A stretch of DNA of 8,817 bases from a virus (Duplodnaviria; Heunggongvirae; Uroviricota; Caudoviricetes), in the IMG/VR virus record IMGVR_UViG_2671181028_000014. One strand, given 5' to 3'. The notes beneath the pieces were generated by a model. It was not told the DNA's origin. It ran no database searches and saw nothing but the letters and a program-made list of their open reading frames with translations. This document shows positions 1 to 8,817 of this stretch, in pieces (positions within the stretch are counted from its first letter, which is position 1; each line of letters opens with the position of its first letter). Both the position numbers and the translations under genes were made by a program.

Positions 1-2979
1 GCCAGCGATGCAGAACGGTCTTCTGCCCGTATGCAGCGTTTTATGGAGCGTCAGACTCAGGCCGCCCGGCAGACAACGCAGGCGGCTTCTTCGGCTGCAA
101 CAGCCGCATCCGTCCATGCGCAGACGGTGGAGAAGAACGCACAGGCTCATGAACGCATGGCCCGCGAGGTGGAGAAAACCCGCCAGCGCATGGAGGCGCT
201 GAGCCAGAAAATGCGCGAGGAACAGGCGCAGGCCATGGCTCTGGCGGAGGCTCAGGATAAAGCGGCTGCTGCGTTTTATCGTCAGATTGACAGTGTGAAA
301 CAGGCCGGTGCGGGGCTGCAGGAATTACAGCGTATTCAGCAACAGATCCGACAGGCCAGAAACAGTGGCGGGATTGGTCAGCAGGATTATCTGGCGCTGA
401 TTTCTGAGGTTACGGCGAAAACCCGTGTTCTTACACAGGCTGAGGAAGAGGCTACCCGACAGAAAGTGGCGTTTATCCGTCAGCTTAAAGAGCAGGCAAC
501 CCGCCAGAATCTTTCTTCTTCTGAGTTGCTTCGTGCTAAGGCTGCCCAGCTGGGGGTAAGCAGTGCTGCAGAAGTGTATATCCGCAAAATGGAGCAGGCA
601 GGAAAAGCCACGCATTCGCTGGGTCTGAAAAGTGCAGCAGCCCGTCAGGAGATAGGCGTTCTGATAGGTGAACTGGCCCGCGGCAATTTAGGTGCGCTGA
701 GGGGATCCGGAATAACGCTGGCTAACCGTGCCGGGTGGATAGACACACTGATGTCACCGAAAGGCATGATGCCAGGAGCGGTTATTGGCGGTATTGCCGC
801 GGCTGTCTATGGTCTGGGTAAAGCCTGGTATGACGGTCAGAAGGAGGGGGAAGAATTTAACCGCCAGCTGTCGCTGACGGGGCATTATGCCGGAGTCACT
901 GCCGGGCAGCTGTGGACGCTCAGTCGTGCTATTTCCGGGAATGGTATCACGCAACATGCTGCAGCCGGTGCGCTGGCTCAGGTGGTGGGGAGTGGTGCAT
1001 TTCGTGGAAACGATATCGGTATGGTGGCGAGAGCTGCCGCACAGATGGAGCGATCGGTTGGCCAGTCGGTCAGCGATACCATAAATCAGTTTAAGCGGCT
1101 GAAGGATGATCCTGTAAATGCCGCGAAGGCTCTGGACAATGAGCTGCATTTTCTTACTGCCACTCAGCTTGAGCAGATACGCGTCCTTGGGGAGCAGGGG
1201 CGGTCCAGTGATGCTGCACGGATAGCCATGTCTGCACTGGCAGAGGAAACCGGTCGGCGTACTGCGGATATTGATAATAACCTCAATGCGCTTGGCAGTA
1301 CGCTGAAGTATCTGTCTGATTTGTGGAGTCGTTTCTGGGATGCGGCCATGAATATTGGTCGTGAAGACTCGCTGGATGAACAGATTGCCGCTTTACAGGA
1401 GAAAGTGTCGCGGGCGAAAAGACTCCCCTGGACGGCATCATCTTCTCAGGTTGAATACGATCAGCAGCGTCTTAACGATCTTCAGGAGAAAAAACGCCAG
1501 AAGGATTTGCAGGATGCAAAAGAGCAGGCAGAGCGGAATTATCAGGAGCAACAGAAACGCCGTAATGCTGAAAATGCTGCACTGAACCGGATGAATGAAA
1601 CGGAAGCAGCACGACATCAGCGTGAAATAGCGCGTATTAATGCCATGCAGTACGCCGATCAGGCTGTCAGGGATGCGGCGATACAACGTGAAAATGAACG
1701 TTACGAGAAAGCCCTGGCATCCGGTAAGAAAAAAACACGCGAAACCCGTAATGATGAGGCCACCCGGTTATTGCTGCAGTACAGTCAGCAACAGGCACAG
1801 GTGGAAGGACAGATTGCTGCTGCCAGACAGTCAGCAGGCATTGCCACGGAAAGGATGACAGAAGCGCATAAACAGCTTCTGGCTCTGCAGCAGCGCATCA
1901 GCGACCTGGACGGGAAAAAACTGACGGCAGATGAAAAGAGTGTGCTGGCCCGTAAAGATGAACTGATTCAGGCACTGACGCTGCTGGATGTAAAACAGCA
2001 GGAGCTTCAGAAACAGACGGCACTCAACGAGCTGAAGAAAAAAACAATTCAGCTGACCAGTCAACTGGCTGAAGAAGAGCGCGCTCAGCGTCAGCAACAT
2101 GACCTGGATATCGCCACGGTGGGTATGGGTGATCAGCAGCGGCAGCGATATCAGGTACAACTGAGTCTTCGCCAGAAATACCAGCAACAGCTGGAGCAGT
2201 TGAGGCGGGATAGTGAGCAGAAAGGGATATATAACACTGATGACTACAGAAAGTCCGAGCAGGCGCTGACGGAGAGCCTGAACCGACAACTGAATGAGAA
2301 TCGCCGTTACTGGCAACAGCTTGAAGTTGTGCAGGGTAACTGGAAAAACGGTGCTATGCGGGCGTTTCAGAATTTCACGGCAGATGCGGATAATGCGGCA
2401 GGCACTGCTGAGCAGATGCTTACAGCGGCATTTAACAGTGCAGGTAATGCACTGGCAACGTTCTGTACTACCGGAAAACTGAACTTCAAATCTTTTACCG
2501 CCTCGCTCCTTTCTGATCTGGCAAAAATCATGGCTCAGATGTCCATGATGCAGGCAGTTAAGGGGATTGGTTCGGCGTTTGGCTGGGGGAGTGCAGCAAC
2601 TGCCAGTGTGACGCCCAATGCTGATGGTGGTGTTTATCAGTCTGCTGATTTGAGTCGCTACAGTGGCACGGTGGTTAACCGTCCGACGTTTTTTGCTTTT
2701 GCAAAAGGTGCAGGTGTGATGGGGGAAGCTGGGCCTGAAGCCATTCTGCCTCTGCGTCGTGGTGCTGACGGTAAGCTGGGGGTTGTGGCGGATATTGGTG
2801 GTTCAGGTATGGCGATGTTTGCCCCGCAGTACAACATCGAGATCAATAACGATGGCACGAACGGGCAGATAGGTCCGGCTGCCCTGAAGGTGGTTTATGA
2901 CCTCGGGAAAAAAGCAGCAGCGGACTTTATGCAACAGCAGTCCCGTGATGGTGGTCTGTTCTCCGGAGGTGGACGATGA
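1..2979 (+). CDS. H: Tail tape-measure protein (lambda gpH family), 5'-truncated by window edge
   Basis: Frame 1 is open from nt 1 to the TGA at 2977-2979, so the ATG at 31 is an internal Met (no SD upstream). Long Q/A/E/R-rich coiled-coil region, a hydrophobic segment (MMPGAVIGGIAAAVYGL, nt ~766-828), and a Gly-rich C-terminus ending ...NNDGTNGQIGPAALKVVYD...RDGGLFSGGGR, which closely matches my recollection of the lambda gpH C-terminus. Sits immediately upstream of M with an ATGA stop/start overlap. Confidence 0.9.
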   Translation, partial: ASDAERSSARMQRFMERQTQAARQTTQAASSAATAASVHAQTVEKNAQAHERMAREVEKTRQRMEALSQKMREEQAQAMALAEAQDKAAAAFYRQIDSVKQAGAGLQELQRIQQQIRQARNSGGIGQQDYLALISEVTAKTRVLTQAEEEATRQKVAFIRQLKEQATRQNLSSSELLRAKAAQLGVSSAAEVYIRKMEQAGKATHSLGLKSAAARQEIGVLIGELARGNLGALRGSGITLANRAGWIDTLMSPKGMMPGAVIGGIAAAVYGLGKAWYDGQKEGEEFNRQLSLTGHYAGVTAGQLWTLSRAISGNGITQHAAAGALAQVVGSGAFRGNDIGMVARAAAQMERSVGQSVSDTINQFKRLKDDPVNAAKALDNELHFLTATQLEQIRVLGEQGRSSDAARIAMSALAEETGRRTADIDNNLNALGSTLKYLSDLWSRFWDAAMNIGREDSLDEQIAALQEKVSRAKRLPWTASSSQVEYDQQRLNDLQEKKRQKDLQDAKEQAERNYQEQQKRRNAENAALNRMNETEAARHQREIARINAMQYADQAVRDAAIQRENERYEKALASGKKKTRETRNDEATRLLLQYSQQQAQVEGQIAAARQSAGIATERMTEAHKQLLALQQRISDLDGKKLTADEKSVLARKDELIQALTLLDVKQQELQKQTALNELKKKTIQLTSQLAEEERAQRQQHDLDIATVGMGDQQRQRYQVQLSLRQKYQQQLEQLRRDSEQKGIYNTDDYRKSEQALTESLNRQLNENRRYWQQLEVVQGNWKNGAMRAFQNFTADADNAAGTAEQMLTAAFNSAGNALATFCTTGKLNFKSFTASLLSDLAKIMAQMSMMQAVKGIGSAFGWGSAATASVTPNADGGVYQSADLSRYSGTVVNRPTFFAFAKGAGVMGEAGPEAILPLRRGADGKLGVVADIGGSGMAMFAPQYNIEINNDGTNGQIGPAALKVVYDLGKKAAADFMQQQSRDGGLFSGGGR

Positions 2980-3305
2980 AAACCTTCCGCTGGAAAGTGA
3001 AACCCGGTATGGATGTGGCTTCGGCCCCTTCCGTAATAAAGGTGCGCTTTGGTGATGGCTATTCTCAGCGTGCGCCTGCCGGGCTGAACGCTGACCTGAA
3101 AACGTACAGCGTGACGCTTTCTGTTCCCCGCGAGGAGGCCACGGCACTGGAATCGTTTCTGGCTGAGCACGGGGGCTGGAAGGCCTTTCTGTGGACGCCG
3201 CCTTATGGCTACCGGCAGATAAAGGTGACCTGCGCAAAATGGTCGTCGCGGGTCAGTATGTTGCGTGTTGAGTTCAGCGCAGAGTTTGAACAGGTGGTGA
3301 ACTGA
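2976..3305 (+). CDS. M: Minor tail protein M (tail tip assembly)
   Basis: 109-aa ORF; GGAGG at 2965-2969 six nt upstream of the ATG; start overlaps the tape-measure stop (ATGA at 2976-2979). Sequence (MKTFRWKVKPGMDVASAP...) and length match lambda gpM as I recall it. Confidence 0.92.
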   Translation: MKTFRWKVKPGMDVASAPSVIKVRFGDGYSQRAPAGLNADLKTYSVTLSVPREEATALESFLAEHGGWKAFLWTPPYGYRQIKVTCAKWSSRVSMLRVEFSAEFEQVVN

Positions 3306-4003
3306 TGCAGAATATCCGACAGGAAACACTGAATGAATGCACCCGTGCGGAGCAGTCTGCCAGCGTGGTGCTCTGGGAAATCGATCTGACAGAGGTCGGC
3401 GGAGATCGTTATTTCTTCTGTAATGAGCAGAACGAAAAAGGTGAACCAGTCACCTGGCAGGGGCGGCAGTATCAGGCCTATCCCATTCAGGGAAGTGGAT
3501 TTGAGATGAACGGCAAAGGAGCCAGTGCAAGGCCAACGCTGAAAGTCTCTAATCTGCACGGCATGGTCACCGGGATGGCGGAAGACCTGCAGAGTCTGGT
3601 CGGAGGAACGGTGGTCAGGCGTAAGGTTTACGCCCGTTTTCTGGATGCGGTGAACTTCGTCAACGGAAATAGCGATGCCGATCCGGAGCAGGAGGTGATC
3701 AGCTGCTGGCGCATCGAGCAGTGCAGCGAACTGAGCGCGGTGAGCGCCTCTTTTGTACTGTCCACGCCGACGGAAACGGATGGCGCTGTTTTTCCGGGGC
3801 GCATCATGCTGGCCAACACCTGTACCTGGACCTATCGCGGTGATGAGTGCGGTTATAGCGGTCCGGCTGTCGCGGATGAATATGACCAGCCGACGTCCGA
3901 TATCACGAAAGATAAATGCAGTAAATGCCTGAGTGGCTGTAAGTTTCGCAATAATGTCGGCAACTTTGGCGGCTTCCTTTCCATTAACAAACTTTCGCAG
4001 TAA
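3305..4003 (+). CDS. L: Minor tail protein L (tail tip; Fe-S cluster-binding Cys motif)
   Basis: 232-aa ORF; AGGTGG at 3292-3297 upstream; start ATG overlaps the M stop by 1 nt (TGATG at 3303-3307). C-terminal Cys cluster (CTWTYRGDECGYSG ... CSKCLSGCKF). Length and sequence match lambda gpL as I recall it. Confidence 0.92.
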   Translation: MQNIRQETLNECTRAEQSASVVLWEIDLTEVGGDRYFFCNEQNEKGEPVTWQGRQYQAYPIQGSGFEMNGKGASARPTLKVSNLHGMVTGMAEDLQSLVGGTVVRRKVYARFLDAVNFVNGNSDADPEQEVISCWRIEQCSELSAVSASFVLSTPTETDGAVFPGRIMLANTCTWTYRGDECGYSGPAVADEYDQPTSDITKDKCSKCLSGCKFRNNVGNFGGFLSINKLSQ

Positions 4004-4007
4004 TCCC

Positions 4008-4751
4008 ATGACAGAGACAGAATCAGCGATTCTGGCGCACGCCCGGCGATGTGCGCCAGCGGAGTCGTGCGGCTTCGTGGTGAGAACGCCGGAGGGGGAA
4101 AGATATTTTCCCTGCGTGAATATCTCCGGTGAGCCGGAGGAGTATTTCCGGATGTCGCCGGAGGACTGGCTGCAGGCAGAAATGCAGGGGGAGATTGTGG
4201 CGCTGGTCCACAGTCACCCCGGTGGTCTGCCCTGGCTGAGTGAGGCCGATCGGCGGCTGCAGGTGCAGAGTGATTTGCCGTGGTGGCTGGTCTGCCGGGG
4301 GGAGATTCACAAATTCCGCTGTGTGCCACATCTGACAGGACGGCGCTTTGAGCACGGGGTGACGGACTGTTACACGCTGTTCCGGGATGCCTACCATCTG
4401 GCGGGAATTGATATGCCGGATTTTGAGCGTGAGGATGACTGGTGGCGCAACGGTCAGAACCTTTACCTGGACAATATGGCGGTCACCGGCTTTTACCAGG
4501 TGCCCCTGTCCTCTGCACAGCCGGGCGATATGCTGCTGTGCTGCTTTGGTGCGTCGGTGCCGAATCATGCCGCCATTTACTGTGGTGACGGCGAGCTGCT
4601 GCACCATATTCCTGAACAACTGAGCAAACGAGAGAGGTATACCGACAAATGGCAGCGACGCACACACTCCCTCTGGCGTCACCGGGCATGGCACGCATCT
4701 GCCTTTACGGGGATTTACAACGATTTGGTCGCCGCATCGACCTTCGTGTGA
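4008..4751 (+). CDS. K: Tail assembly protein K (N-terminal MPN/JAMM-like domain + C-terminal NlpC/P60-like domain)
   Basis: ORF in frame 3. JAMM signature HSHPGGLPWLSEAD (H-x-H-x7-S-x2-D) with an upstream Glu (CAPAESCGF); C-terminal region has a candidate NlpC/P60 catalytic Cys (GVTDCYTLF) and His (VPNHAAIY). Start chosen as the first ATG after the L stop (4008) so that the MPN domain is complete; the lambda-style annotated start corresponds to the in-frame ATG at 4152. No strong SD before 4008, so the start is uncertain. Confidence 0.85.
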   Translation: MTETESAILAHARRCAPAESCGFVVRTPEGERYFPCVNISGEPEEYFRMSPEDWLQAEMQGEIVALVHSHPGGLPWLSEADRRLQVQSDLPWWLVCRGEIHKFRCVPHLTGRRFEHGVTDCYTLFRDAYHLAGIDMPDFEREDDWWRNGQNLYLDNMAVTGFYQVPLSSAQPGDMLLCCFGASVPNHAAIYCGDGELLHHIPEQLSKRERYTDKWQRRTHSLWRHRAWHASAFTGIYNDLVAASTFV

Positions 4752-5290
4752 AAACGGGGGCTGAAGCCATCCGGGCGCTGGCCACGCAGCTTCCGGCGTT
4801 TCGCCAGAAACTGAATGAGGGCTGGTATCAGGTGCGCATTTCCGGGCGTGATGCAGGCGAAAACGAATTATCTGCCCGTCTTAATGAGCCGCTGGCAAAT
4901 GGTGCCGTGATCCACATCGTACCGCGTCTGGCGGGTGCCAAAAGTGGCGGTATTTTTCAGGCAGTGCTGGGTGCGGCGCTAATTGCTACGGCAATCTGGA
5001 TGCCGGGGCTTAGTATTGTTGCAAGTAATCTCATGTTCTCTCTTGGGGCAGGTATGGTTTTAGGCGGTGTTGCGCAGATGCTGGCACCGAAAGCCAAAAC
5101 GCCTAAAGTGTCAGCCACTGATAACGGTAAGCAAAATACCTATTTTTCCTCATTGGATAACATGGTTGCCCAGGGCAATGTCCTGCCTGTTCTGTACGGT
5201 GAAATGCGCGTGGGGTCACGTGTGGCATCTCAGGAGATCAGCACGGCAGATGAAGGGGATGGTGGTCAGGTTGTGGTAATTGGGCGGTAA
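4649..5290 (+). CDS. I: Tail assembly protein I (ubiquitin-like N-terminus, hydrophobic central region)
   Basis: 213-aa ORF starting MAATHTLPLASPGMARICLYGDL...; GAGG at 4634-4637 upstream; overlaps the 3' end of K by 103 nt in a different frame, as I recall for lambda K/I. Ends ...EGDGGQVVVIGR, then TAA at 5288-5290. Confidence 0.9.
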   Translation: MAATHTLPLASPGMARICLYGDLQRFGRRIDLRVKTGAEAIRALATQLPAFRQKLNEGWYQVRISGRDAGENELSARLNEPLANGAVIHIVPRLAGAKSGGIFQAVLGAALIATAIWMPGLSIVASNLMFSLGAGMVLGGVAQMLAPKAKTPKVSATDNGKQNTYFSSLDNMVAQGNVLPVLYGEMRVGSRVASQEISTADEGDGGQVVVIGR

Positions 5291-5350
5291 TATTATTTAC
5301 TCATGTTCTAACTGATTTAATATTTATATCGAACACTGATAATTATTCTG
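5291..5350 (+). promoter_or_regulatory. Putative sigma70-type promoter region for the inserted lipoprotein gene (AT-rich)
   Basis: ~70% AT intergenic stretch immediately upstream of the lipoprotein gene. Weak -35-like TTTACT (5296-5301) and -10-like TAATAT (5318-5323) with a 16-nt spacer; other -10-like hexamers (TATTTA, TATATC) nearby. By eye only, no experimental support. Confidence 0.3.
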
Positions 5351-5362
5351 TTGGTTAGCTAT

Positions 5363-5701
5363 ATGAACAAAACGATTTTATTCTGCACGATTATTGCCTT
5401 AACAGGATGTAAATCTTTGGATTACGTAAAATCCGGCAAGCCTGTAATGGAAGGTAATTCATTAAAAAATATTGATGAATTGTCAGGCTGCATATCTAGA
5501 CAATGGGCTGGTAATGGAACACCTATAACATCCATTCCTATTGAGAATGGGGTAAGCCTTTTAGTTCCACAGGCTATGGGTGGGTATGATGTTGTGCTTG
5601 ATATCAAAAAAGCAGGAAATGGCAGTAGTTTTACTCTTTATGAACGCGTACCAGCATTAACGCCAAAAATTTTTGCTGATAGTGTTAATGCATGTAAATA
5701 A
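5363..5701 (+). CDS. Predicted outer-membrane lipoprotein of unknown function (moron between I and J)
   Basis: 112-aa ORF from the ATG at 5363 (the ORF track begins at an upstream TTG, 5351). N-terminus MNKTILFCTIIALTG|C has a basic n-region, hydrophobic h-region and an L-T-G-C lipobox; the residue after the lipidated Cys is Lys, not Asp, implying Lol sorting to the outer membrane. Gene is ~30-35% GC against >55% in the flanking tail genes. Followed by an intrinsic terminator. No SD is obvious. Confidence 0.8.
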   Translation: MNKTILFCTIIALTGCKSLDYVKSGKPVMEGNSLKNIDELSGCISRQWAGNGTPITSIPIENGVSLLVPQAMGGYDVVLDIKKAGNGSSFTLYERVPALTPKIFADSVNACK

Positions 5702-5724
5702 TAGTTAATCCTGCCGTAACTCAT

Positions 5725-5755
5725 GAGCCGCCTTTTGGGCGGCTTTGTTGTTTAT
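5725..5755 (+). terminator. Rho-independent terminator downstream of the lipoprotein gene
   Basis: GC-rich hairpin AGCCGCC (5726-5732) / GGCGGCT (5738-5744), 7 bp stem with a 5-nt loop (TTTTG), followed directly by a T-rich tract TTTGTTGTTTAT (5745-5755). Lies 24 nt after the lipoprotein stop and ~13 nt before the J ribosome-binding site. Confidence 0.7.
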
Positions 5756-5764
5756 GGAGTGTGA

Positions 5765-8817
<3,053 letters not shown>

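Follow-up and report, generated by a model that had tools for sequence, protein, structure and literature searches.

Gene K of a lambda-like Escherichia coli prophage very probably encodes a 247-residue JAMM and NlpC/P60 assembly enzyme, with the 199-residue K as an annotation artefact

Gene K was analyzed in a window of 8,817 nucleotides, by which we mean the whole stretch of viral DNA under study. In all likelihood, K is translated from the ATG at position 4008 as a 247-residue assembly enzyme that combines a JAMM and an NlpC/P60 domain and processes the product of gene I, and the 199-residue K of lambda is an artefact of annotation. The 247-residue form is correct but already known from PGAP, the databases, and the published domain architecture. 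The remaining value of the analysis lies in the documented cause of the 199-residue misannotation and in a lineage-specific short isoform of low probability.

Genomic setting of gene K

The distal tail module of an E. coli prophage of the lambda type makes up the 8.8-kb window. The prophage of E. coli DEC9B showed 99.5% identity to the window, and a search of 5,426 complete E. coli genomes found related DNA in approximately 4,700. The features discussed below are listed in Table 1. K is located between the genes matching Phage_tail_L and Lambda_tail_I and encodes a fusion of the JAB and NlpC/P60 domains, which is the arrangement that identifies K/TAPK.

Table 1. Position of genes, codons, and motifs in the window
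Feature	Position	Strand	Remarks
Tape-measure gene H	ends at 2979		5' part cut off by the window start
M	2976–3305		
L	3305–4003		Phage_tail_L (Pfam), just upstream of K
Stop codon of L (TAA)	4001–4003	+	4 nt 5' of the K start
Gene K, full-length CDS, 247 aa	4008–4751	+	Putative JAMM/MPN+ (Prok-JAB) domain N-terminal, NlpC/P60 (C40) domain C-terminal
Codons in the long form only (48)	4008–4151	+	Helix 3–15 and strands 21–27 and 30–36 of the predicted MPN fold; P17, E19, C21, G22, and N38 conserved
Codon of E19 (GAG)	4062–4064	+	Putative catalytic, water-activating Glu of JAMM; context P-A-E-S-C-G, motif P-x-E-x-C-G
Shine–Dalgarno-like GGAGGAG	4136–4142	+	Codons of E43-P44-E45-E46; 9–11 nt before ATG 4152
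Internal in-frame ATG (Met49)	4152–4154	+	Where K of lambda (199 aa) was historically annotated to begin
JAMM zinc-site motif, H68-S69-H70-x7-S78-x2-D81	4209–4250	+	HSHPGGLPWLSEAD, residues 68–81
NlpC/P60 papain-like domain, residues 111–224	4338–4679	+	C121 (4368–4370), H187, H199
Gene I	4649–5290 (start 4649 or 4688)	+	Frame other than that of K; overlaps the 3' end of K
Insert between I and J	5291–5767		36% GC versus 54–59% GC for the module
J	from 5768		

Two further properties of the module were observed. In the near-identical DEC9B locus, gene H comprises 3,075 nt and encodes 1,024 aa (PGAP) versus 853 aa in lambda; a proportionally longer tail than that of lambda is therefore predicted. 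In addition, the interval between I and J, which spans only ~60 nt in lambda, contains in the window a gene for a predicted lipoprotein of 112 aa (ATG, 5363–5701) with the N-terminus MNKTILFCTIIALTGC including a lipobox. This protein belongs to phrog_914 (function unknown) and is labeled “hypothetical protein” by PGAP. The gene is followed by a terminator-like hairpin, AGCCGCC-TTTT-GGGCGGCT, with a T-run (~5726–5753). The insert looks like a moron, possibly one encoding a surface or exclusion lipoprotein.

JAMM and NlpC/P60 domains of K

The motif defined for JAMM proteins, E-x(n)-H-S/T-H-x7-S-x2-D (Ambroggio et al., 2004; PMC300881), was found in the K frame, where x7 corresponds to P71–L77 and x2 to E79–A80. 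The glutamate of the motif, E19, was conserved in at least 90% of 52–56 homologues and lined up with the EaCG of structures 2kks and 2kcq. Since E19 lies upstream of Met49, the motif is complete in the 247-aa form only.

A comparison with the Pfam profile Prok-JAB (PF14464; gathering threshold of 25 bits, profile length of 114) separated the two forms clearly. The long form scored 53.4 bits (E = 2.8e-14) over profile positions 4–113 of 114, whereas the 199-aa form scored 23.7 bits, which is under the threshold, and matched positions 63–113 only, i.e., half of the profile. The NlpC/P60 domain (PF00877) scored 48.8 bits (cut-off, 23), covered the complete profile (1–105 of 105), and was present as a whole in both forms. 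Within its triad, C121 was conserved in at least 90% of the 52–56 homologues, and H187 and H199 were invariant. The protein was assigned to phrog_30 with E = 8.7e-164.

The AlphaFold2 model of the 247-aa K had a pLDDT of 96.6 and a pTM of 0.91. In this model, residues 3–15 formed a helix and residues 21–27 and 30–36 formed strands (pLDDT of 96–98), and residues 1–48 lay within the MPN core. Foldseek matched the N-terminal half to PfJAMM1 5ld9 (TMt of 0.65), 5lda, 2kks, CSN5, Rpn11, and AMSH, all with a probability of 1.00, and the C-terminal half to enzymes of the MepS and LytE type. A search of the PDB with the K-family profile gave a consistent picture: 2kks, 2kcq, and 5ld9/5lda were matched from their residues 5–31, starting at profile positions 2–17, and the C-terminal domain matched MepS/Spr, LytE, and Acd. 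The modeled structure thus has the alpha/beta fold of MPN domains. As residues 1–48 belong to the MPN core of the model, a start at Met49 would remove the first helix, two strands, and the catalytic Glu.

These results bear on several statements of the initial annotation, which had been made from the letters of the window. It had placed a JAMM signature and an upstream Glu in the K frame, and both were located there (E19 and H68–D81). It had also estimated that a start at 4152 would leave about 20 residues before the H-x-H motif and truncate the MPN fold; Met49 precedes H68 by 19 residues, and E19 and half of the fold are encoded in 4008–4151. The complete JAMM and NlpC/P60 modules that it had attributed to the 247-aa protein were recovered with Pfam. 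The in silico features of JAMM proteins, NlpC/P60 proteins, and the K family are all found together in the 247-aa form only.

Conservation of the first 48 residues

A tblastn search of 50,697 phage genomes matched 1,763 records, and in 1,723 of these the match took in 80% or more of the 247 query residues. In a spread sample of the matches (60 rows listed), the alignments began at query residues 1–8, down to 25–30% identity; the rows listed included phages T1, Rtp, and Burkholderia KS9, as well as phages of Mannheimia, Pseudomonas, and Klebsiella. When 1.84 billion cluster representatives were searched exhaustively with HMMER, 2,808 matches were obtained. In relatives of 230–260 aa (35–59% identity), residue 3–15 of the relative was paired with query residue 3–10, and the collinearity from residue 3–10 onward held for homologues at 25–58% identity. 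Conservation upstream of Met49, which had been proposed as a check of the longer form, therefore extends through every homologue examined.

In the alignment of 52–56 proteins, G22, N38, H68, H70, and D81 were invariant, and P17, E19, C21, F47, S69, and S78 were conserved in at least 90% of the sequences. For 17 closer relatives, the Nei–Gojobori dN/dS of codons 1–48 was 0.38, with 22/15/31 variable sites at the three codon positions and hence an excess at the third. This ratio is approximately twice as high as that of the remainder of K (0.17–0.21); nevertheless, it indicates purifying selection on codons 1–48.

Candidate translation starts of K

The ATG at 4008–4010 opens an ORF of 744 nt (247 aa and the stop codon) that ends with the TGA at 4749–4751. 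The ATG at 4152–4154 (Met49) lies in the same frame and yields a protein of 199 aa. TETESAILAHAR is an example of a peptide that would mark the long form of K. The ATG at 4008 had been described as the first after the L stop; this is correct for the stretch downstream of L, while the stop-to-stop ORF of K also includes GTG 3933 and ATG 3954, both within L.

Initiation at one of these two upstream codons would give a protein of 265–272 aa. From 3933 onward, no stop interrupts the K frame, and in one record, mEp010, whose annotation is based on phanotate, K is longer and reaches into L. However, no homologue supported 3933 or 3954 as the K start: the homologues begin a few residues from position 1 of the 247-aa form, and the extension is not conserved, overlaps the C-terminus of L in another frame, and has no Shine–Dalgarno (SD) sequence. 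Moreover, one additional base between L and K in lambda and in many relatives leaves only 7 open codons upstream, and thus in-frame starts of the 3933/3954 type are lost in those genomes. We consider a start inside L to be exceedingly improbable.

The distance between the L stop and the K start at 4008 was found to be a general feature. It ranged from −4 to +5 nt in nearly all lineages, being +4/+5 nt in the lambda group and +2/+3 nt in mEp010 and Mannheimia; the junction was an ATGA overlap in T1 and TGATG in at least 12 enterobacterial prophages. In distant phages, annotated proteins of 243–260 aa begin at the L stop. We infer from this adjacency across the family the classic signature of coupling by termination and reinitiation.

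No SD sequence was found upstream of ATG 4008 (anti-SD pairing of +0.6 kcal/mol). The GGAGGAG in front of ATG 4152, in contrast, forms a duplex with the anti-SD of −9.5 kcal/mol, similar to the values of the L and I starts. This difference accounts for the 199-aa calls that some gene finders make although the long ORF is uninterrupted, and for the disagreement on the K start between public records.

The same signal raises the question of two isoforms, i.e., full-length K from 4008 and a nested 199-aa K' from 4152, which would retain the intact NlpC/P60 domain but no functional JAMM domain, would have a separate or regulatory role, and would resemble other nested lambda products. Besides the strength of the SD-like sequence and the choice of ATG 4152 by gene finders, the existence of K versions with only NlpC/P60 in some prophages (PMC1779556) would fit a second product. 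Among the 56 internal in-frame ATG codons of the tail genes, ATG 4152 is the sole one preceded by a GGAG/GAGG core; yet one such codon in 56 is no more than a rough estimate would expect by chance, the GGAGG falls out of the codons for E-P-E, and a spacing of 9–11 nt is long for an SD sequence. The codon itself is not maintained either: position 49 is CTG in a prophage of E. ruysiae (94% aa identity; locus L030), ATC in E. albertii (90%; ATC was found in loci L038 and L050), and Ile or Leu in nearly all distant homologues. The GGAGGAG is kept in the close E. coli group only. Citrobacter relatives retained the ATG of codon 49 and lost the GGAGG, which shows that the SD and ATG are not conserved as a pair. 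Two isoforms therefore seem unlikely to us.

We regard as equally doubtful the specific version in which, in the E. coli lambda group, GGAGGAG-N9-ATG (4136–4154) drives a nested 199-aa product, with the NlpC/P60 domain alone active, alongside full-length K in tail-tip assembly. If true, the sequencing error of 1982 would by accident have “annotated” a nested gene specific to this lineage. The initial annotation had left the choice between the longer form and two isoforms; the longer form is upheld, while the short isoform finds no comparative support, as neither Met49 nor GGAGG is conserved.

The lambda reference sequence lacks one G

The annotated start of lambda K (14276 in NC_001416) aligned exactly with ATG 4152, which agrees with the 199-aa lambda start given in the initial annotation. 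However, J02459/NC_001416 was found to be without one G after position 14266 (between 1267 and 1268 of our lambda locus L001, corresponding to 4141–4143 of the window). The reference reads GGAGGC-TATTTCC, whereas independent lambda genomes read GGAGGCGTATTTCC. The missing G is located 9 nt 5' of the ATG of the 199-aa form, and K is split into an ORF of 76 aa and the annotated ORF of 199 aa. In NC_001416, the N-terminus of the JAB domain (MTQTESAILAHARRCAPAESCGFVV...GEPEA) lies in a frame other than that of the annotated K, and the equivalent long ORF contains a stop.

The sequence GGAGGCGTATTTCC was present in five deposits, namely lambda imm434, two independent Lambda genomes, Lambda_AGU (48,503 bp), and DE3. 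In the phage collection, the gap was found in J02459, NC_001416, and only two further records (OR474059 and OR974322), which may be reference-guided; approximately 66 other matching records had the extra G.

When 185,579 species genomes were scanned, many low-coverage lambda contigs were seen in unrelated assemblies; they are evidently contamination from sequencing controls or reagents. Many of these contigs matched the reference base for base along stretches of up to 3 kb, the inserted G excepted, and at least 15 independent ones carried the G and encoded a continuous 247-aa K. The lambda contigs (loci L016–L028, L039–L043, L046, L048, L051, and L070) came from assemblies of Neobacillus, Pseudoxanthomonas, Shewanella, Chromatium, Bradyrhizobium, Enterococcus, Streptomyces, Pseudomonas, and others. 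Some were ~48.4–48.5 kb in length, and the contigs of ~48.5 kb are probably commercial control DNA.

The simplest reading of these data is that one base was omitted in the 1982 sequence, and that the first ATG after the break of the frame was annotated as K and then propagated. Since the ORF is broken by the lack of one G in the reference, the 199-aa start of the lambda style is not a biological alternative. Two other causes of the difference were considered. A programmed −1 frameshift in lambda K was rejected, as independent lambda sequences have the extra G and a continuous ORF and the site has no slippery heptamer. A strain-specific mutation of cI857 Sam7 is unlikely, given that contaminant contigs otherwise identical to the reference carry the G. 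A search of the available literature for lambda position 14266/14267 and for a correction to the start of K yielded neither. The lambda sequence of a commercial supplier presumably lists the inserted G at 14266, and we take UniProt P03729 to carry the 199-aa K as well.

The possibility that only the 199-aa form is made, with the upstream 144 nt being untranslated or a decaying remnant of JAB, has in its favor the historical annotation in lambda, DE3, lambda imm434, and 813R6, the presence of an SD at 4152 and its absence at 4008, and the length of 199 aa still quoted in the literature (PMC7291167). However, the lambda annotation rests on an omission of 1 nt that independent lambda sequences do not share. 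In addition, residues 1–48, including the catalytic positions, are conserved down to 25–30% identity, their codons show dN/dS below 1, the short form would lose E19 and halve the MPN fold, and an activity of gpK on gpI resembling that of deubiquitinases (DUB) has been reported at a conference (PMC12908700). Production of the short form alone is thus, in our estimation, highly improbable, and translation of the 247-aa form from 4008 remains the preferred reading.

Annotation of K in public records

At least five different start codons of K are annotated for essentially one gene. In the DEC9B locus, PGAP annotates exactly 4008–4751, as a C40 family peptidase, and most of the K protein clusters, with thousands of members, are of 247 aa. 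Among the individual records, K has 199 aa in NC_001416, EU078592, OM418626, and ON470618, 211 aa in KT232076, 223 aa in NC_049955, 247 aa in OL657228, PV340536, and NZ_CP074760, and 275 aa in PP180001. The versions of 211 and 223 aa start at internal GTG codons, 3' of the codon of the catalytic Glu. The 199-aa model was copied into the records of DE3, lambda imm434, and 813R6, and the study that still quotes 199 aa detected only a peptidase, at residues 52–182 of 199 (PMC7291167).

The practical worth of the result is the curation of the lambda reference NC_001416/J02459, in which the 199-aa K is without the catalytic Glu. A gpK cloned or modeled from this reference would have half a JAMM domain.

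Product of gene I as the presumed substrate

Lambda K was listed among the JAMM proteins in 2004 (PMC300881), and its JAB and NlpC/P60 architecture was published in 2003–2006, with TAPK described by Iyer, Burroughs, and Aravind in 2006 (PMC1779556). In the latter work, TAPI was defined by a ubiquitin-like (Ubl) domain with a C-terminal Gly, and the JAB domain was predicted to release the Ubl (PMC1779556). According to a conference report of 2025, lambda gpK cleaves the Ubl of gpI in a deubiquitinase-like manner (PMC12908700). Lambda gpK is essential for tail assembly and absent from the mature virion (PMC10721106, PMC12617516), and lambda gpI is found in the virion, where it was resolved by cryo-EM from residue 101 only.

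The product of gene I in the window matched Pfam Lambda_tail_I and phrog_32. Its N-terminal Ubl ends with K-S-G-G, with the GG encoded at 4946–4951. In both lambda and the window, I contains A-G-A-K-S-G100-G101, where the cryo-EM density of gpI begins (residue 101). This shared sequence, together with the reported action of gpK, indicates that K and I of the window are the same enzyme–substrate pair as in lambda, and the product of I is the presumed substrate of the JAB domain of K.

The start of I is ambiguous: ATG 4649 has an SD (−9.4 kcal/mol), and ATG 4688 was chosen by PGAP. A third codon, GTG 4748, which overlaps the K stop and serves as the start in several phage records, would cut into the ubiquitin-like domain of I. 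Depending on the start, K and I overlap by 64–103 nt in different frames, and the synonymous divergence of K is lower there (pS of 0.13 versus 0.28).

Proposed role of K in tail-tip assembly

Taken together, K would be translated from ATG 4008 as a 247-residue non-virion enzyme of tail-tip assembly. Initiation without an SD would most likely occur by translational coupling to the L stop 4 nt upstream. The product would consist of a putative JAMM/MPN+ zinc isopeptidase domain (residues ~1–105, with E19, H68, H70, S78, and D81) fused to a putative NlpC/P60 cysteine peptidase (C121, H187, and H199). By homology, the JAMM domain may act in a deubiquitinase-like manner and remove the Ubl of I after its Gly-Gly, and this removal would allow the structural part of I to enter the tail tip at the right step. 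The 199-aa K persists because annotations are transferred between records and because gene finders give weight to the internal GGAGG.

Comparison with known systems

The closest known counterpart is lambda gpK (TAPK), which, after correction of the lambda sequence, shares 94% aa identity with K of the window over all 247 residues. Lambda has the same H-M-L-K-I-J gene order, the same JAB and NlpC/P60 domains, and the same neighboring protein I with a Ubl and GG. It differs in the 199-aa K of the reference, in A46 (E46 in the window) and a few other substitutions, and in being without the 36% GC lipoprotein moron found between I and J of the window.

The stand-alone prokaryotic and archaeal JAMM/MPN+ proteins (PfJAMM1, 5ld9/5lda; AfJAMM, 1oi0/1r5x; 2kks; 2kcq) have the full E-x(n)-H-S-H-x7-S-x2-D motif, as does K. 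Their Foldseek comparison with K gave a TMt of 0.59–0.65 and an rmsd of ~2.8–3.4 Å at a probability of 1.00, and the E-values against the K-family profile were 1e-12 to 1e-10. PfJAMM1 cleaves the ubiquitin-like SAMP2, which parallels the presumed action of K on the Ubl of I. Unlike these proteins, K has a fused cysteine peptidase domain and a role in phage tail morphogenesis, and it is presumed to act on a linear Ubl fusion, in which the Ubl is the N-terminal domain of I, and not on an isopeptide conjugate.

With E. coli MepS/Spr and B. subtilis LytE, K shares the papain-like fold and the Cys-His-His triad. In contrast to these enzymes, K is without a signal peptide or cell-wall-binding domains and is a cytoplasmic protein that is absent from virions.
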